A DNA stretch of 64,000 nt from Candidatus Levyibacteriota bacterium (GTDB lineage: Bacteria; Patescibacteriota; Microgenomatia; Levybacterales; UBA12049): NCBI GenBank assembly GCA_016182235.1, contig JACOXT010000003.1:529199-593198 (forward strand), read 5' to 3'. Numbering within the stretch: the stretch's first letter is position 1; each line of letters opens with the position of its first letter. Both the position numbers and the translations under genes were made by a program. The notes beneath the pieces are model-generated. The model had not been told where the DNA came from and made no database searches. It saw only the letters and a list, made by a program, of their open reading frames with translations. Positions 1,854 to 25,603 of the stretch are shown here, piece by piece.

Positions 1854-3701
1854 ATGTTTTTTGATCAATATATTACAGTTTTTAGTAATATTTTTAAAAA
1901 TTTTTCAAATCTCAGATCCGATTTTGTAGAATTTAATCTTAATATAAGCATTTTTTATTTTTTAAGCAGTCTTTTTTTCGCAATATTTCTAATGGTCGTT
2001 TATTATCTAGTTGGACGAAAGATAAAATTAATATTTTTTAGAAATAATGAACACCCAACCCTTAATTTATTTATAAGTATTGCCTTAGGATACATTTTTG
2101 TAAACTCAGGATTAGCGATTTTAGGTAATTTTTCCTTGTTTTATCCATTAATTATATGGTTATATATTGGCGTAATCCTAGTTTTTGCGTTTTATCCGTT
2201 TTATGATTTAGAAAATGTTAGGGAATCCATATTCCGTTTTTCTCATTTAATAAAAATTCTTGCCAATAAGAAAATGTGGATTTTTCTTGGCACATTCTTA
2301 TTTGTTGCCATTGCTTTTCTTCGTCTAATTCCTCCGGAAATTGGAGAAGACGCAATTGGTTACCACACAAGTAATCCGCACCTATTTTTAAAAAATCATA
2401 CCATGATGCTAACGCCAACATCTTCGTCTGTCGCTCTACTTACTCCTCAGCTCGGAGAGATGTCTTATGTGCTGTCTGAATTCATCGGAATTATAGACTC
2501 AGCGCGATATATTCATTTTGCTTTTTATTTTCTTGTTGTTTTCCTTCTGATGCTTATGTATCCGTATGCGGCGATTTTTTTTGTAACTGCGCCCGTTGTT
2601 ATCCAAGTATCGTCAAAGGCAAATGTTGACTTTCAATGGATTTTCTGCTGGTTACTTTTGATATTTCTCATCACGCGAAATAGATTGAGGAGAACAAAAA
2701 ATGTAATTTTAATGGGAATACTATTCGGGGGAGTTTTGGCGTCGAAGATTTGGACGATTGCATTTTTTCCTCTATTTGTTTTATATCTGCTTATTTCTTA
2801 TAGAAAACTTTCTTCTCTTCATAAGCTTAGTATTATAATTACATTTTCGCTAAGCGCTCTTTTAGTCGACTCTGTTTGGCTTTTGCGATCCTATATCGTA
2901 ATCGGAAATCCAGTGTTCCCCGCATTTTCAACTATTGAGACTCTGGAGGGTATAAGCGGGGAATTAAGCATGAATAACATTATTGGTTTTAATAGCTTGA
3001 TGTTTCACATCAAAAATATCAGCGTTTTCAGTCCTTTGTTTTTTTTAGCAATTTTAGCTTTTATTTTCACTCGAAAAGAGTCACTAAAATTCTTAAGTAA
3101 GCGTAACTTGTCATTATTGTTCGGTCTTCTGATATTAGAATATCTTTTTATAAGGTATCATTTCGGAAGATATTTGTTAGGTTTATATTCTCTTGCAATA
3201 TTATTTTTTTCAGAAAGCGTAAAATTGGCAATTAGTAAGTTTAATTTATATAAGATTATTTTTATTTCTATTTTTATTGTTATGTTTGCTTATTATTCTA
3301 TAAATACACTGCTTATACTTCCTTATGGATTTGGTTGGGCAGATAAGAATAAGTACCTTACCAGAATATTATCGCGTGATAATTCCAGTTATTATAATTT
3401 TGACAAAAGATTTGATAAGTGGATTTCAAAAAAGGATAAAGTCGCCACATATGAAACCTTTGGGTTTTACTACGCAAATTTTGATTATATAGATATAAAT
3501 TATATCTTCGATAAAGATAATAGATCGTTTGAGCAACTGAGGCGGCGTGGTATAACAAAAATATTTATAAAAGGAGGTAAAATGGAATGGTTCTGTGAAA
3601 AATTACGGGTCACAGACTGTCACGACTCTAATTATCAATTGCTTGCGCAATATTCACCTGATCCAAAATACTTATACTTAGTGAAAAATATTAAAAAATA
3701 A
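1854..3701 (+). CDS. polytopic membrane protein, GT-C-like; paralog of 5748..7322
   Basis: 615 aa with many TM helices. Shares the loop motif EDAIGYHTSNPHLFLKNH with FDSLWYHLTLPKLYLENH of ORF 5748..7322. Confidence 0.5.
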   Translation: MFFDQYITVFSNIFKNFSNLRSDFVEFNLNISIFYFLSSLFFAIFLMVVYYLVGRKIKLIFFRNNEHPTLNLFISIALGYIFVNSGLAILGNFSLFYPLIIWLYIGVILVFAFYPFYDLENVRESIFRFSHLIKILANKKMWIFLGTFLFVAIAFLRLIPPEIGEDAIGYHTSNPHLFLKNHTMMLTPTSSSVALLTPQLGEMSYVLSEFIGIIDSARYIHFAFYFLVVFLLMLMYPYAAIFFVTAPVVIQVSSKANVDFQWIFCWLLLIFLITRNRLRRTKNVILMGILFGGVLASKIWTIAFFPLFVLYLLISYRKLSSLHKLSIIITFSLSALLVDSVWLLRSYIVIGNPVFPAFSTIETLEGISGELSMNNIIGFNSLMFHIKNISVFSPLFFLAILAFIFTRKESLKFLSKRNLSLLFGLLILEYLFIRYHFGRYLLGLYSLAILFFSESVKLAISKFNLYKIIFISIFIVMFAYYSINTLLILPYGFGWADKNKYLTRILSRDNSSYYNFDKRFDKWISKKDKVATYETFGFYYANFDYIDINYIFDKDNRSFEQLRRRGITKIFIKGGKMEWFCEKLRVTDCHDSNYQLLAQYSPDPKYLYLVKNIKK

Positions 3702-8568: not shown

Positions 8569-9324
8569 TTAAGGATTGTATATCACTCTTAGTTCTTTCT
8601 CTGTTTTATTGCCGGCTTCATCAATAGCTACAATTTTAATGTTATTTTCTCCATTTTGAAGAGATAGCCTATATGAAAAATTACCATTCCCGTCAGTTAT
8701 AGCCCAAAAACCGTTTACTGTTACTTTTATATTTGGGTCTGTTGTTCCCTGGATATCTATAATGTTTTGGTCTTTTGAAAATGATTGTCCATCGAGAGGA
8801 GAGACAAGGTTCAAATAGGGAGATTTATTTTTCATGGTTACTAGTATGGATTTAGAAAAATCGCTCTTTTTATCGTTTATAATAGCTTTTGCTTTTATAA
8901 TGTTTTCTCCCTCAGAAATGATTTCTCTAAAAGAGAAAGTTCCATCTTCTTTAACTTGTGTTTTGTCTACAAGGTCACTATTGACGTAAAGCTCTATAAT
9001 TTGCATTGGGGCAGCAAAACCCGAAAGGATTATCTCAGCGCTACTCGTTGCTGAGGGAATAGGATTCAAAACAGGAACCGGAACAAAGGCCGTTATGTTA
9101 TTCTTAGCTTCCTCTTGACTGCCTCTAGAACCCGATAGGAAAAGACTAAAATTAATTAGCAATGGAATTCCAAACTTAATTAGAATAAGAAGCACCACAA
9201 TAATCCCAAAAATGCTAAGAAATAAATTTTTCTTTGACTGTTGTTCAAGTTTTCTTGACAATCGAGATCTATTCATAGATGAATCTTGTATAATTGGTTG
9301 ATTTTGTATTTCCTCTTCGACCAT
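8569..9324 (-). CDS. membrane-anchored extracytoplasmic protein with beta-sandwich (Ig-like) repeats
   Basis: 251 aa with a charged N-terminus, one TM (LFLSIFGIIVVLLILIKFGIPLLI), then two similar beta-rich segments (...GENIIKAKAI... / ...GENNIKIVAIDEAGN...). The ATG at 9324 sits 1 nt after the tRNA-like gene. Confidence 0.45.
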   Translation of the reverse strand: MVEEEIQNQPIIQDSSMNRSRLSRKLEQQSKKNLFLSIFGIIVVLLILIKFGIPLLINFSLFLSGSRGSQEEAKNNITAFVPVPVLNPIPSATSSAEIILSGFAAPMQIIELYVNSDLVDKTQVKEDGTFSFREIISEGENIIKAKAIINDKKSDFSKSILVTMKNKSPYLNLVSPLDGQSFSKDQNIIDIQGTTDPNIKVTVNGFWAITDGNGNFSYRLSLQNGENNIKIVAIDEAGNKTEKELRVIYNP

Positions 9325-9325
9325 G

Positions 9326-9544
9326 AGCCAACGGTGGGAATCGAACCCACGACCTAGTGTTTACCCGCCTGCCTAAGCTGAGCCCTCCCGGAGAATCGAA
9401 CTCCGATCAACGGTTTACGATACCGCTGCTCTGCCACTGAGCTAGGAAGGCTATATTCTGCGGGCAGGCGAAACACTTGCTCACCCACGCTTGTCAAGCA
9501 AGCGAACTCGGCCTTCGGCCTCCGTTCCACTGAGCTACGTTGGC
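9326..9544 (-). tRNA. tRNA-like gene (Thr-type acceptor, inferred anticodon GGU) interrupted by a 39-nt D-loop insertion and a 105-nt anticodon-loop insertion
   Basis: Minus strand reads GCCAACG-TA-GCTC-[49 nt]-GAGC-A-AGTGT-TT-[105 nt]-GGT-AA-ACACT-AGGTC-GTGGG-TTCGATT-CCCAC-CGTTGGC-T. All four canonical stems are perfectly Watson-Crick and correctly spaced. Confidence 0.5.
9381..9451 (-). tRNA. tRNA-Thr (anticodon CGU), nested inside the interrupted tRNA-like gene
   Basis: GCCTTCC-TA-GCTC-AGTGGCA-GAGC-A-GCGGT-ATCGTAA-ACCGT-TGAT-CGGAG-TTCGATT-CTCCG-GGAGGGC-T. Full cloverleaf folded by hand, with one G-U pair in the acceptor. CCA is not encoded. Confidence 0.85.
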
Positions 9545-9555
9545 ATTCAGAGAAT

Positions 9556-9584
9556 ATTGTATGAAATTTGGATCTAAAGAGCAA
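9556..9584 (-). promoter_or_regulatory. candidate sigma70-type promoter for the tRNA locus
   Basis: Minus strand has TTGCTC (9584..9579), a 17-nt spacer, then TACAAT (9561..9556). The -10 ends 11 nt upstream of tRNA position 1. The promoter lies over the pyrE stop codon. Confidence 0.35.
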
Positions 9585-10200
9585 GGTTTTGAAGATACTT
9601 TTTGCCATGCCCAACAATTGTGTTTATAGGCATATTTTTCTTGCAAAAAGGACAATCTTTCTTCTCAAAAGATTGTGCTTCAAAAACACCAAGGTAAGAA
9701 AGGGGAGCGTCAACTGTTTTTGAAGTTACTTTTTTAGGATCACGATTTATCATAACACACACTTCCATTACCTTTCCATCAGCTTTTCTTATGCTTTCCA
9801 CAACCTTTCTTACAGAGCCTCCGGTAGTAGTAAGGTCCTCCAAAACCAAAACGTTCTTACCCTTAACCAATTGCTCATATCCGCGTCTAAATACCTGATT
9901 ATTGTTTTCGTCTTTTTCAGTAAAGATGCCGAGTATTTCTCTCTTTTTAAATTTTGAGAGATGATATCCAGTCCATTGTGAAAGAATAATTCCGCCTATC
10001 GAAGGCCCAACCACAACATCAATATCTTTGTTTTTAAATTTTTCTGCGAAAAGTTTACAAATCTTAGATGTTTCAAATGTATGAGGATAAAGCATATCTT
10101 TCCGAATATATACACTGCCATGTCTTTCTGAGGTATAGACAAAATGATCGTTAGTTATAATAGCTCCAATATTCTTTAATATTCTTACAACATTTGTCAT
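9574..10200 (-). CDS. pyrE: orotate phosphoribosyltransferase-like (type I PRTase)
   Basis: PRPP-binding motif VLVLEDLTTTGGS. Adjacent to and overlapping pyrF (ATGA-type coupling). The C-terminal CPFC motif is atypical. Confidence 0.7.
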   Translation of the reverse strand: MTNVVRILKNIGAIITNDHFVYTSERHGSVYIRKDMLYPHTFETSKICKLFAEKFKNKDIDVVVGPSIGGIILSQWTGYHLSKFKKREILGIFTEKDENNNQVFRRGYEQLVKGKNVLVLEDLTTTGGSVRKVVESIRKADGKVMEVCVMINRDPKKVTSKTVDAPLSYLGVFEAQSFEKKDCPFCKKNMPINTIVGHGKKYLQNLAL

Positions 10201-18866: not shown

Positions 18867-21800
18867 TTAATGTTTACTAACAGACGAGATTTTTTCCGCA
18901 ATTATGGTTGGTTTATCGTTTTTGGTATCAACATGCCCTTCAATTACAACCACAGAATCCTTAGTTAGAAGACTTTTATGCTGAGAAAATATCCTTGGGA
19001 ATACGACACACTCTATCGTTACCCCTTTTTCGTTCCCGATTAATAAAAAAGCCATCTCGTGATTATTCTTTTTTGTAAAAATTCTCCTTGTGGCTTCGAT
19101 AATACCCCCAACTTTAACTCTTGTGCCTTCTTTTTCCTCAACAAGGAGCTCAATTTCATGGGAAATAACCGATTTGAGAAACATAAGGTTATTGAGTTGA
19201 GGATGAGAAGTAAGATATAATCCAAGAAACTCTTTCTCAAAAGCCAATTTTTCATTTGTTGAAAAATCCTCAACAGCATTTTGGATCGTTTTAACAGAAA
19301 CCGATATTTCATCTGATCCAAAGAGACTTGTCTGTCCAGCTTCATTTTGTTTCTTTTGCTTATGGAGTTTTGCGACAATTTCAGGGAAAGATATTAGTAG
19401 GCTTGCCCTATTGCCAAAAGAATCCATGGCTCCTGCCTTGATGAGACTTTCAAACGTTTTTTTATTTACAGGCCCTAAATCAACTTTCGAGCAAAAATCT
19501 TCAAGATTCTTAAAATCCCCTTTTTCTCGACCGTCAAGAATGCTTTTTATTGCCGCTGTACCGACATTTTTAATAGCCGAGAGTCCAAATCTAATACTGT
19601 TTTTTTTCTCTATCATAAAATCGCTTTGAGACTTATTGATATCCGGTGGAAGAACTGTTACATTTAATCTCTTGCATTCCGAGACTGCCTGAGCTATCTT
19701 CTCATTTTTAACCGGTCCAGTTGTTCCGCGAGATTCGGCTGTTAGAAGTGCTGTCATAAACTCAACGGGATAATGAGCCTTAAGATAAGCAGTTCTAAAA
19801 GCAATTGTCGCGTATCCTGCGGCGTGAGCCTTATTGAACCCGTATCCGGCAAATGGCTCGAACAACACCCAAAAAGCCTCAGCTTTTTTCTCTATCATGC
19901 CATTTGCAATACAACCTTTAATAAATTGGTCGTGCTGTTTTTTCATTTCCGATGGGATTTTTTTACCAATTGCTTTTCTTAACTTATCTGCTTCAAGCCA
20001 GGAGTAGCCAGCGACTTTGATCGCGGTCAGTAAAACGTCATCCTGAAACGTTATTACTCCGTAAGATTCTTTCAGTATTTCCTTGAGACGGGGGTCAGGA
20101 TATCTTATTAAAGCAGGGTTATGCTTTCTTCTTATAAATTCTGGGATATTAGCCATAGGTCCTGGTCTGTACAAAGCAACCATAGCCTGCAAATCAAAAA
20201 TGCTGGTCGGCTTTAAATCTTTTATATATCTTCTCATTCCTGACGATTCCAGCTGAAATATTCCGGTTGTTTCTCCGGATGACAAAAGCATATAGGCTTT
20301 CTTATCGCCATAAGGAATGTCCGACAGATTTATTGATTTTTCCTGATTTTCCTTAATAAACCTAAGTGCTTCCTGAATAATAGTAAGATTTCGAAGTCCA
20401 AGAAAATCGATTTTAAGAAGTCCTACGCCGTCTTCTCCAACCGTGTACATGTCATATTGAGTTATTACCTTTTCGCCGTTTGTTTCTTTTTGAAGTGGAG
20501 TATATTCTGTCAGGGGTTTATCGGCGATAACAACTCCAGCGGCATGCATCGATGCATGCCGCGCAACTCCTTCAAGTTTTTTAGATAAATCAAGAAGTTT
20601 TCTAGTTTCATCTTCTGTCTGATACGCGATTCTAAGCTCTGGGCTTTGCTCTAGTGCTCTGTCTATCGTCATCGCATGACCCTGCCAGCCCATAGGAATC
20701 ATTTTGGCTATTCTATCTGGAACAGCATACGGCATCCCAAGAGCGCGGCCTGTATCCCTAACAGATCCTCTTGCTTCCATCGTTCCAAACGTGATAATCT
20801 GCGCAACCTTGTCGCGACCATACTTTTCTGTTACATACTCTATTACTTCATCTCGCCTATTGTCTGCAAAATCCAAGTCAATGTCCGGAGGGGAAGGTCG
20901 CATGGGGTTAAGAAATCTTTCAAAGGGCAGATTAAAAAATAGAGGATCAACGTCAGAAATTTCAAGCGCATAAGAAACAATTGATCCCGCATTTGATCCA
21001 CGCCCCGGGCCAACAGTAATTCCGCGGGATTTTGCCCACCCAACAAAATCCGCGACAATCAAAATATACTTTTCATATCCTTTTTTTAGGATTACAGACA
21101 GCTCATATTCTGCACGTTTTTTCATGTCATTTGTTACCTGGCTGTATCTTTTCTTAAGTCCTTCTTCAACTTTCTCTCTTATATAAACTTCCGATGACTT
21201 ATTGCCTGGGACATTAAAAATAGGCATGATCCACTTCCCAAGAGTTATATCCACATCGCACATGTCTGCAATTTTTACTGTGTTTTGTATTGCTTCTTCG
21301 TTTTGTATAAAAAGTCCTTTCATTTCGTCGGGGCTTTTAATATAAAAGTCTGGTGATGAAATCATCGACAGTTTTCTGTCCTTCGTATTCAACGTGGTTT
21401 GAGTTTGGATACAAAGAAGAATTTCCTGAGCTTGAGCATCGCTAGCATTAATATAGTGGTTATCATTTGTTGCCACAAGAGGCACTCCTAATCTTTGGGA
21501 AAGCTCAATGAGTTTTTCGTTTAATTCATCTTGATCTTTTACATTTGTATGCTTCTGAAGCTCAAAATAAAAATTGCCTTCCCCAAAAATTTGCACCAGG
21601 TTCTGTGCTCTTTTCTTTGCTGTTTCAATCTGATTTTGAAGTAGTGGTTCTGATACATAACCATTTACACATGACGTTAAACAAATTAACCCTTCATGGT
21701 ATTCTTTTAAAAGTTCCATATCTGTTCTTGGGCGATAGTAGTAGCCCTCAAGATTTGCTATTGAAATTATTTTCATGAGGTTTTTATATCCAATGTTATT

Positions 21801-23461: not shown

Positions 23462-24247
23462 TTATTTTCTCATTGCCTCAGTATCTTGAGCTAATGCTTT
23501 AACTTCTTCGTATTTTAATCTTTTCGGCCAGTAAAGATCACCAGATAAGCCGTAAACGGGAATATATAGGTGAGGTTTATCCTTATTTACCTCAAGCATT
23601 TTTGTAACAACTATGTCTACAGTTTCCTGAACTGTTGTGGCATTAAAATCAATATAATTAAGGAAATCATGACGAAACTTATCAACTGCTCTGTCAATAA
23701 AAACAATGCCCCTAAATGATTTCATGGGCACTCTAAAGATAGACCTAGGCATATTTAATATTCCAACATACTTCTGTTTGTATCTGTAATATTTATCATC
23801 TATAAGTAATGTAAAAATATTTTCTCTTGGAATTTGAATAGCACGATTGTTATGTGTTGCGGCAAGTGTTCCGATACTAAACATAAGTTCCAAATCTTGT
23901 TCTCTCAAGCCCAATGAGACACTACTCTCGTTGCGGGGGTCAGACCAGTTCCTGCTAAGAGTCAAGCCGACTCTTTTTGCAAACTTTTCAGCTACAATCC
24001 CATAGCGAAAAATGGATTCTAGTCTGTCAACTTCTGGATTTGCAACTCTTCTGTTATCCCAAACGTAATTTGGATAGCTTGTCCACCTTCCATTCCTACC
24101 ATCATCGATAAAAAGGGGCCCAAAACGAACAAAGCTGTGTTTTTGAAATATAGGCTGGCGGATGTCCGCGATCTTTCCTAAAGCTGATTGCTCAGCTTGC
24201 TCTAGCAGGTTAATCCTTTGCTCTGATCGATGTTCCTGAATAATCAT
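23462..24247 (-). CDS. hypothetical protein (261 aa) inserted between gatA and gatB
   Basis: Long ORF, same strand, and its start overlaps the gatA stop by 4 nt (ATGA). No recognisable motif, TM helix or signal peptide. Confidence 0.7.
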   Translation of the reverse strand: MIIQEHRSEQRINLLEQAEQSALGKIADIRQPIFQKHSFVRFGPLFIDDGRNGRWTSYPNYVWDNRRVANPEVDRLESIFRYGIVAEKFAKRVGLTLSRNWSDPRNESSVSLGLREQDLELMFSIGTLAATHNNRAIQIPRENIFTLLIDDKYYRYKQKYVGILNMPRSIFRVPMKSFRGIVFIDRAVDKFRHDFLNYIDFNATTVQETVDIVVTKMLEVNKDKPHLYIPVYGLSGDLYWPKRLKYEEVKALAQDTEAMRK

Positions 24248-25603
24248 AAGTTAGGTTTTCTTGAGTACCATTTTACTTCTTGTTCGTATGCATGGCCAAT
24301 TTGAAATAATAGATTTTCTGAAAACTGCGGACCTAGTATTTGCATCCCAATTGGTAGTCCATTGTCAAAACCAATAGGAACTGATAATCCTGGTATTCCT
24401 GCAAGATTTGCTGTAACAGTAAAGATGTCGGATAAATACATTTTGAGGGGATCATTAATTTTTTCGCCAAGTTTCCAGGGCGGAGTAGGGGAGACTGGCG
24501 TAACAATTGCATCAACCTTCTCAAACGCCTTATAAAAATCGCGTTTTATCAACGTACGAACCTGCATTGCTTTCTTGTAATAAGCGTCGTAATACCCGCT
24601 AGAAAGAGTGAATGTTCCAAGCATTATTCTTCTTTTTGCTTCATCTCCGAAATTCTCTCTTCCCGAACCATATCTAATTCCATCATATCTTGCTAGATTT
24701 GAAGATACTTCCGAGGGCTGAATTATATAATAACAAGCATTCCCATATTCTGTATGAGGTAAAGGAACTTCATCTACAATCGCGCCCAACTTCTCAAATA
24801 CTTTTAAACTTTCCTCAAATCTGGTTTTAACATTTTCGTCTAGTCCTTTTTCAATATATTCTTTTGGAACACCGATTTTAATATTTCTAACATTATTGTT
24901 TAGATTTTTAGTATAGTTTTGAACCTCAGCTCTAGGGGTTGACGCATCAAAATCGTCTTTTCCTGCAGTAACATTCAGAAGCAATGCCGAATCTTCGACT
25001 GTTTTTGTGAAATGACCGATTGAGTCAAGAGAAGATGCCATTGCGATTATTCCGTAGCGGCTGACTCTTCCGTAAGTAGGTTTAAGACCAACAATATTAC
25101 AAAAACTCGCAGGTAGCCTAATAGAACCTCCTGTATCTGTTCCGGTTGATGCAATACACATATCTGCCGCCAGAGCCACAGCTGAGCCACTACTTGATCC
25201 ACCGGGATCCGTGTCCCCACGCATCAAGATTTGTTTTGCCAATGATTACAGCTCCAGCATCTTTTAATTTCTTTACAACCGTTGCGTCATACTGAGGTAT
25301 ATAATCAGCTAGGACTTTTGATCCTGCTGTTGTTTTTATTCCTTTTGTAGAAAATAAGTCTTTTAAAGCAATCGGAATTCCAAGAAGAGGTTTAGCTTCC
25401 AAGGTCTCGCCTTGTAAAGCTAATGCATCAGCTTTCTTTGCTTCATACAATGCAAAATCTTCACAAATGGCAATAAATGCGTTGAGAAGCGGATTATGTT
25501 TTTTAATTTGGTCTAAACACGCTTTAGTCAACTCAACCGATGAAAATTCTTTGCTTTTTAATCCCTCTATTGCTTCTTTAATAGTAAGCTCATTTAATTT
25601 CAT
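24244..25603 (-). pseudogene. gatA: Glu-tRNA(Gln) amidotransferase subunit A, split by a frameshift (ORFs 25190..25603 and 24244..25242)
   Basis: The N-terminal ORF ends ...GKTNLDAWGHGSRWIK*. The C-terminal ORF carries DPGGSSSGSAVA...GTDTGGSIRLPASFCNIVGLKPTYGRVSRYG in another frame. The two overlap by 53 nt. Confidence 0.65.

Follow-up and report, generated by a model that had tools for sequence, protein, structure and literature searches.

A two-hairpin insertion in the D loop of an interrupted tRNA-Thr(CGU) gene from Candidatus Levybacteria

Introduction

In Thermoproteales archaea and in the red alga Cyanidioschyzon merolae, tRNA genes contain bulge-helix-bulge (BHB) introns at positions other than the canonical one, among them the D arm. 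To our knowledge, bacteria have no tRNA splicing endonuclease. Small GC-rich mobile hairpins are found in AT-rich genomes and are represented by the GC clusters of yeast mitochondria, the double-hairpin elements of Allomyces and the palindromic elements of Rickettsia. Elements that integrate into tRNA genes bring along a substitute for the gene portion that they displace.

The tRNA genes of Patescibacteria have group I introns, including at position 35/36, and the single D-loop case in the same study is a group II intron (PMC13011429). Short intervening sequences without ORFs are suspected in the rRNA genes of CPR bacteria (PMC11270868), and tRNA-targeting integrative elements have been mapped (PMC7192596). 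In the literature that we searched, we found no tRNA gene nested within another tRNA gene and no short tRNA inserts other than group I introns in bacteria, including the CPR. Here we describe a tRNA-Thr(CGU) gene that is interrupted in both the D loop and the anticodon loop, and the latter interruption contains a complete second tRNA-Thr(CGU). The gene is located in a 64-kb stretch of DNA, which is designated as the window.

Results

Architecture of the outer gene

The features of the locus and of its relatives are collected in Table 1. At positions 9326-9544, tRNA finders detect the inner gene only. When 42 nt of the D loop and the 105 nt of the anticodon-loop cassette are taken out in silico, the outer gene yields a 72-nt tRNA, which ARAGORN identifies as tRNA-Thr(cgt). 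All of its 21 stem pairs are Watson-Crick pairs, and it forms a canonical cloverleaf with U8, A14, G18 G19, U33, G53 and the T-loop UUCGAUU. RNAfold predicts a nested MFE fold for the 231-nt locus (-95.5 kcal/mol, z = -3.4).

Table 1. Coordinates of features at the nested tRNA-Thr(CGU) locus of the window and at related interrupted loci (positions of the L loci refer to their own contigs)
Feature	Positions	Strand	Description	Basis
Outer gene ("shell")	9326..9544	-	Resident tRNA-Thr(CGU) gene, 219 nt, interrupted twice	Direct reading, nested fold, ARAGORN, synteny
Outer gene, acceptor 5' strand	9544-9538	-	GCCAACG, then U8 A9	
Outer gene, D stem 5' strand	9535-9532	-	GCUC	Direct reading
Expanded D loop	9483..9531	-	49 nt between GCUC (9535-9532) and GAGC (9482-9479)	Direct reading, RNAfold
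Segment between D stem and hairpin 1	9531-9527	-	AGUGG	Direct reading
GUGG direct repeat, upstream copy	9527..9530	-	Second copy at 9488-9485	Direct reading
Hairpin 1	9505..9526	-	AACGGAGGCCGAAGGCCGAGUU; stems AAC/GUU and GGCC/GGCC, GGA/GA internal loop, GAA loop	RNAfold
tRNA-like segment in the D-loop insertion	9500..9517	-	CGAAGGCCGAGUUCGCUU / CGAAGGCCGAGTTCGCTT	Local alignment to the L087 cargo tRNA-Thr(CGU)
Hairpin 2	9488..9504	-	CGCUUGCUUGACAAGCG; 6-bp stem CGCUUG/CAAGCG, 5-nt loop CUUGA	RNAfold
Segment between hairpin 2 and D stem	9487-9483	-	UGGGU	Direct reading
Outer gene, D stem 3' strand	9482-9479	-	GAGC, then A, anticodon stem AGUGU, UUCG	
Anticodon-loop cassette	9364..9468	-	105 nt between G35 (9469) and U36 (9363)	Direct reading, homologous arms in L048, L087, L090, L213
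Cassette 5' arm	9468-9452	-	CCUGCCCGCAGAAUAUA, beginning CCUGCCCGC	
Inner intact tRNA-Thr(CGU)	9381..9451	-	Replacement gene	ARAGORN; Rfam RF00005, 59.5 bits
Cassette 3' arm	9380-9364	-	CAGCUUAGGCAGGCGGG, ending GGCAGGCGGG	
Outer gene, 3' of the 105-nt insert		-	UAA, ACACU, AGGUC, T arm GUGGG UUCGAUU CCCAC, CGUUGGC, discriminator U	
Promoter-like motif	9556..9584	-	TTGCUC (9584-9579), 17-nt spacer, TACAAU (9561-9556)	Direct reading
Example of an uninterrupted orthologue			GCCGATG TG GCTC AGTGGTA GAGC A AGTGT TTCGTAA ACACT AGGTC GTGAG TTCGATT CTCAC CATCGGC T	
L087	2166-2348		Cassette with inner tRNA at 35/36, normal D arm	Three independent assemblies
L090 (Ga0155812_114)	4559-4323	-	Cassette with inner tRNA at 35/36 and downstream orphan 3' half	
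L048 (JBBTTO010000002.1)	3168-3391		Doubly interrupted tRNA-Thr gene	
L048, first cassette	3190-3300		tRNA-bearing cassette in the D stem (23/24)	
L048, second cassette	3313-3353		Empty 41-nt cassette at anticodon 35/36	
L213 (Logan SRR22387855)	1870-1910		Empty cassette-family hairpin of about 25 nt, CTTGCCCCGCC T ATTTCAGGCGGGG, in the D loop after G15	

The phosphoribosyltransferase encoded next to the locus is 100% identical to a protein of a Candidatus Levybacteria MAG. We compared the locus with its orthologues in related CPR species, about 100 loci in all. An uninterrupted tRNA-Thr(CGU), whose D loop is 7 nt long (AGUGGUA or AGUGGCA), is located at the equivalent locus in about 14 related species, and the shared gene order runs from pyrE (or atpC) through tRNA-Thr(CGU) to a Glucodextran_B/Big-domain membrane protein. 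Some of these uninterrupted orthologues have a mismatch. The loci of the closest pyrE relatives (P0002, P0005, P0006, P0008, P0009, P0020 and P0062) contain either an uninterrupted tRNA or a site without a tRNA. The outer shell and the uninterrupted tRNA at the syntenic position in L008 are 90% identical, and the shell has the anticodon stem, variable loop and T loop in common with the uninterrupted orthologues. Judged by sequence and gene order, the outer tRNA-like element is the orthologous resident tRNA-Thr(CGU) gene of Candidatus Levybacteria (CPR). Because it is a resident orthologue, the insertion can be measured against the approximately 14 uninterrupted genes, which uphold the earlier view that the D loop of a genuine tRNA-type gene has received an insertion. 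As removal of the 42 nt and the 105 nt restores a fully paired 72-nt tRNA with this degree of identity to L008, the D-loop insertion as such is beyond chance.

Structure of the D-loop insertion

A preliminary description of this locus placed 49 nt between the D-stem strands GCUC and GAGC, and all of its coordinates are correct when read on the minus strand. It counted 39 nt of these as inserted, but the 7-nt D loops of the orthologues set the insertion at 42 nt. The motif GUGG is directly repeated at the two junctions (9530-9527 and 9488-9485), so that the register is ambiguous, as had been recognized, and the 42 nt may correspond to 9526-9485, 9530-9489 or 9524-9483. The last of these registers would leave the D loop AGUGGAA and is the only one in which the outer tRNA has the canonical A21. 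The repeat at the junctions could be a target-site duplication or a microhomology.

The two hairpins are returned by RNAfold both in the whole 231-nt locus and in the isolated 49 nt, where the two-hairpin fold accounts for 80% of the ensemble. For their composition, the 49 nt have an ordinary folding energy (z = -0.98; 27 of 200 shuffles were equally stable). When folded alone, hairpin 2 has a z value of -3.0, with one of 200 shuffles as stable, and hairpin 1 has a z value of -1.4. Hairpin 2 had been reported with a 5-bp stem and a 7-nt loop and not to be an anticodon arm; the hairpin exists and is no anticodon arm, but its stem has 6 bp and its loop 5 nt. The two ends of the insertion do not pair with each other in RNAfold. 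The insertion has a G+C content of 62%, compared with about 36% for the genome. The D-loop sequence is identical in an independent Logan assembly (L211, run SRR12113420); therefore, the insertion is not an assembly artefact.

The well-defined fold would be in line with a functional RNA module, that is, a protein-binding or processing signal which is held on a tRNA-like scaffold and aids maturation of the inner tRNA. The shell stays intact, and the insertion lies after G18 G19, in the variable D-loop portion whose additional bases protrude at the tRNA elbow; both features would suit such a module. However, the hairpins are missing from three other complete nested loci, which manage without them, and their stability does not exceed the expectation from composition. 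They also have no Rfam match and no homologue, and hence no covariation. We regard a function of this type as very unlikely.

The anticodon cassette and related interrupted loci

The cassette of the window has GC-rich, inverted arms and is seamlessly placed at anticodon position 35/36. In four other species, the tRNA-Thr(CGU) gene is split by homologous cassettes, which are placed at 15/16, 23/24 and 35/36. The arms of the cassettes in the window, L048, L087, L090 and L213 are significantly similar to one another. The termini of the family, 5' CCYGYCYGCC ... GGCRGGCRGG 3', pair mutually. Outside the tRNA gene, the arm motif was not found in the window, L001-L080, L081, L084, L087 or L090. The arms of 10-12 nt occur in two exactly reverse-complementary forms, CCTGCCCGCC...GGCAGGCGGG and CCCGCCTGCC...GCGGGCAGG (L087 2166-2348 compared with window 9364-9468). 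In both forms the cargo tRNA is co-oriented with the outer gene, and the forms differ by four coordinated changes across the two arms.

The shells are close to native orthologues, with an identity of 99% between L087 and L004 and of 82-86% for L090 and L048, next to the 90% of the window shell. Of the four inner tRNAs, three reach no more than 77-82% identity to any sampled sequence, and the inner tRNA of the window has 75-77% identity to any sampled orthologue. The inner tRNA of L090 is 88% identical to the window shell. The combination of near-native shells and mostly distant inner tRNAs fits foreign cargo that invaded a resident gene.

After in-silico removal of the inserts, all four complete shells form perfect cloverleaves (21 of 21 Watson-Crick pairs each). 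A second insertion is found in two of the four complete nested genes, those of the window and L048, and a replacement tRNA is present in both. None of the approximately 14 complete uninterrupted orthologues carries an insert; the L213 contig is incomplete and ends inside its D-loop insert, before any possible nested tRNA. In the preliminary description, the second insertion was taken to argue against a single accidental disruption. This argument does not stand because the second hits sit in genes that already hold a replacement tRNA, which is the pattern expected of tolerated, unspliced hits in a dispensable shell.

The orphan 3' half of L090 begins exactly at U36, and the matching 5' half is absent. 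This locus is composed of three layers, namely a tRNA-Thr in a tRNA-Thr, a 25-nt spacer that repeats the final 8 nt of the outer tRNA, and the orphan 3' half, whose acceptor strand CGTTGGC is that of the window shell. In the MFE fold of L048, the 5' arm of the first cassette pairs with the 3' arm of the second cassette over 13 bp. Logan contigs of three samples break within the tRNA locus, in the inner anticodon loop (L211), the D-loop hairpin (L213) and the anticodon loop (L214), and the breaks could be caused by repeats or strain heterogeneity at the insertion sites. Viral contigs were scanned twice with cassette patterns; one scan was empty, and the other gave 120 matches by chance in GC-rich phage DNA, and no T loop adjoined any of them. 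A spurious 87-aa ORF that spans the locus gave no matches when it was used to seek other nested loci.

The promoter-like motif ends 11 nt upstream of the 5' end of the outer gene and is also present in the uninterrupted L075 and L215, whereas no comparable motif was found in front of the inner tRNA. Because TTGCTC-17-TACAAT falls below the threshold of the consensus promoter scan, we only infer a promoter and co-transcription of the two genes. Within this region, the motif ATTTCATACAAT (ATTTCATAGAAT in L042; window 9556-9570, minus strand) is kept upstream of tRNA-Thr(CGU) in L042, L064, L075 and L215. It is likely an extended -10 promoter element, which is placed before the outer and not the inner gene.

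Intron and mobile element signatures

Inspection of the folds revealed no BHB motif, with two 3-nt bulges and a 4-bp helix, at either insertion. The flanks of the D-loop insertion are the direct repeat GUGG and not a complementary pair. The window fold places the 5' junction of the anticodon cassette 2 bp into an unbroken 8-bp helix. Between the window and L087, the arm helix shifts in register with respect to the junctions. The group I intron model (RF00028) gave no match at E <= 10 in 9200-9700, and none was found in L048, L087, L090 or L213. The catalytic core of a group I intron typically comprises at least 200 nt, and the inserts here have 42 and 105 nt. Domain V/VI of group II introns (RF00029) had no Rfam match either, and these introns measure several hundred nt or more, compared with 42 nt for the D-loop insertion. 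Searches of 9200-9700 against Rfam (gathering threshold and E <= 10) returned the inner tRNA only, with no group I, group II, tmRNA or Y-RNA match, and the related nested loci likewise matched no group I, group II or other family apart from tRNA. An RNase III-type intervening sequence was rejected, since the insertion folds into two tandem local hairpins (3+4 bp and 6 bp) and has no extended end-to-end duplex of about two helical turns.

The intron-like reading of the D-loop insertion given in the preliminary description is not borne out by these results, nor by the unpaired ends of the insertion and the absence of any homologue for covariation. The broader alternative is that both interruptions are intervening sequences at the RNA level, which an undescribed, protein-dependent pathway of the CPR would excise while rejoining the exons. 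Splicing would then join ...GCUCAGUGG(AA) to (GU)GAGCAAGUGUUUCG and ...UUCG to UAAACACU, and each transcript would give two tRNA-Thr(CGU) molecules, of which the inner one would be intron-encoded. Seamless removal leaves perfect tRNAs in all four complete nested genes, and their shells are free of point decay. Related inserts at 15/16, 23/24 and 35/36 of one gene resemble the multi-intron tRNAs of Thermoproteales, most of these sites are loops exposed in the folded tRNA, and the confinement of the arm motif to the tRNA gene in the loci scanned would also agree with splicing. These points are opposed by the missing BHB, by a cassette junction that lies within a continuous helix, by the variable register of the arm helix, and by inserts that are too short for, and have no signal of, group I or group II introns. 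Furthermore, the ends of the D-loop insertion stay unpaired, the outer tRNA would exactly duplicate the inner one, empty inserts were not seen alone in complete, otherwise intact genes, and the bacterial endonuclease for such a reaction is not known to us. Splicing of both interruptions thus appears unlikely.

Pfam searches with 20 ORFs of the window identified housekeeping genes only and no transposase, integrase or RNA-splicing enzyme. An Amidase (gatA-like) ORF at 24244-25242 (minus strand) matches only profile positions 125-444 of 445, and a 261-aa ORF without a Pfam match (23462-24247) is located between this ORF and gatB. In the region 23462-25242 (minus strand), gatA may have been split or rearranged. 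A perfect 24-nt palindrome, GCGGCATGCATCGATGCATGCCGC, is located within the DNA polymerase III alpha ORF (20539-20562).

Origin of the D-loop insertion

Homologous D-loop inserts, which the preliminary description had proposed to look for in relatives, were not found in the loci compared. A blastn-short search with the insertion against the approximately 100 related loci gave nothing above chance matches of 10-15 nt, and the 64-kb window contains no second copy with up to three mismatches allowed. Among the loci compared, the insertion is unique to this genome. It shows no significant similarity to the cassette arms in either orientation and was rejected as a member of the CCYG-armed cassettes, whose arms match one another and not the insertion. 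A long-gap alignment gave no support for its 3' end as a decayed cassette arm. GC-rich perfect hairpins in the window gave three matches (two distinct hairpins), compared with 1.1 expected, and none is akin to the insertion.

We also considered the insertion as a copy of a small mobile double-hairpin (MITE-like) element with a GTGG target-site duplication, in the manner of the GC clusters and double hairpins known from AT-rich organelle genomes. A 4-nt direct repeat surrounds a 38-nt core that contains two tandem hairpins, the G+C content of the insertion stands out from that of the genome, and in relatives this gene is a hotspot of insertion for small GC-rich hairpins. A mobile element, however, should be repeated, and this one is present as a single copy in the 64-kb window and gave no match in the approximately 100 related loci. 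Direct reading revealed no terminal inverted repeat, the window has no family of GC-rich hairpins, and the cassette arms are dissimilar. Taken together, the mobile double hairpin seems a rather improbable origin.

The segment 9517-9500 resembles the L087 cargo tRNA from the last part of its anticodon stem through the variable loop into the first part of the T arm, with matches at 17 of 20 positions and one 2-nt gap. Equally high scores were obtained in 10 of 2000 and 10 of 1000 shuffles (family-wise p about 0.005-0.01). By direct reading, the inner part of the anticodon arm of the same cargo tRNA has the sequence of the hairpin-2 stem, CGCUU/AAGCG. These similarities hint that the insertion was derived from a tRNA fragment, and we treat this as a lead and not as proof. 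They could also be expected if the insertion were the eroded remnant of an earlier tRNA-bearing D-arm cassette, shrunk by internal deletions; the D stem of L048 indeed holds a cassette with a whole tRNA. However, neither cassette arm has left a remnant that could be aligned, the similarity is short, and heavy erosion of the insert is hard to reconcile with the flawless shell beside it. An eroded cassette is thus an improbable source, and we rank it a little below the mobile double hairpin.

Discussion

We tentatively prefer, with a confidence somewhat short of even, to explain the D-loop insertion as a lineage-specific second insertion that is not spliced and lies in a shell gene whose function has been replaced. 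The 105-nt cassette with a foreign, complete tRNA-Thr(CGU) would first have turned the resident gene into a transcribed shell. The resident promoter would then transcribe the shell, the D-loop insertion and the inner tRNA as a single precursor. From general tRNA biology, RNase P and 3' processing would free the inner tRNA, which would supply decoding, and the pieces of the shell, including the D-loop hairpins, would be leader and trailer by-products. Because the shell would be freed from decoding, a second insertion in its D loop would be tolerated. The insertion probably represents filler or a small fragment able to form hairpins, possibly from a tRNA gene; its capture probably left the 4-nt GUGG repeat, and it would be neither spliced nor functional of its own.

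Several features of the sequences are consistent with a replaced shell. The outer gene is syntenic with uninterrupted orthologues, and the inner tRNA is intact and more divergent than the shell. Second insertions appear only beside a replacement tRNA (window and L048), and the approximately 14 uninterrupted orthologues are free of inserts. The D-loop insertion has no homologue in the window or the related loci, is unrelated to the cassette arms and has a fold that is not exceptional, and a part of it resembles the variable loop and T arm of a tRNA. L090, where the 5' half is gone and only an orphan 3' half is left beside the nested gene, would represent a later stage of the same process, and the promoter-like motif shared with orthologues is placed upstream of the outer gene only.

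Three observations argue against a replaced shell. All four shells are flawless, while a mismatch is present in some uninterrupted orthologues, and neutral relics should show some decay unless the insertions are recent. One register restores AGUGGAA, and the D-loop insertion may thus be as seamless as the cassettes. In L213, a hairpin is inserted in the D loop, and the contig ends before any nested replacement tRNA. Because of the flawless shells, the seamless cassettes and the L213 case, we keep a small share of confidence, no larger than that given to splicing above, for an undescribed kind of intervening sequence at the RNA level or of element that can be excised precisely. The more specific proposal, in which the D-loop insertion and the CCYG-armed inserts are intervening sequences of one new protein-dependent system for tRNA splicing or precise excision in the CPR, with a functional outer gene and a tRNA in its intron, is about as doubtful as the mobile double hairpin.

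The D-loop insertion alone is probably a passenger, and its value is in marking a repeatedly invaded gene. Tiny GC-rich cassettes appear to invade one tRNA-Thr(CGU) gene of the CPR repeatedly and at exact positions, and some of them bring a complete replacement tRNA, which results in a tRNA within a tRNA. This nested system with several independent interruptions is apparently undescribed, as the literature that we searched contains no description of it. If the shells are dead, the cassette would be a compact selfish element that breaks a gene and supplies the substitute; if they are spliced, the CPR would have a bacterial route of tRNA splicing other than group I. In either case, the annotation of tRNA genes and the completeness estimates of CPR genomes would be affected.

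Comparison with known systems

The multi-intron tRNAs of Thermoproteales and C. merolae are similar to this locus in that one gene has several short inserts, in the D arm and the anticodon region, with seamless removal. In those tRNAs and in the cassettes described here, inserts at different sites are interrelated, suggesting transposition. In contrast to those systems, the host here is bacterial, no junction has a bulge-helix-bulge, one insert is a whole tRNA, and the D-loop insertion shares nothing with the other inserts. The group I introns of Patescibacteria (PMC13011429) have the phylum and the 35/36 position in common with the cassette. They differ in size, with hundreds of nt compared with 42 and 105 nt, and in their ribozyme core, which is absent here, and the D loop is no known group I site.

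The intervening sequences of bacterial 23S rRNA that are excised by RNase III are likewise short, ORF-less, sporadic hairpin inserts in the loops of a structural RNA. They form one long stem from their two ends and are cut out without religation, whereas the D-loop insertion forms two local hairpins, and a tRNA cut in the D and anticodon loops would not decode. The GC-rich mobile hairpins of yeast mitochondria, Allomyces and Rickettsia resemble the insertion in their length of tens of bases, their GC-rich (double) hairpin, their location in an RNA gene of an AT-rich genome and their short direct repeat, but they form multi-copy families, whereas the D-loop insertion is found once in the window and the approximately 100 loci. 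Compared with the integrative elements that target tRNA genes, the invader here has about 105 nt and no integrase, and it brings a whole tRNA that is nested in the target without hybrid att sites. It resembles these elements in that the invader restores the function it disrupted and displaced tRNA halves remain, as seen in the orphan 3' half of L090.
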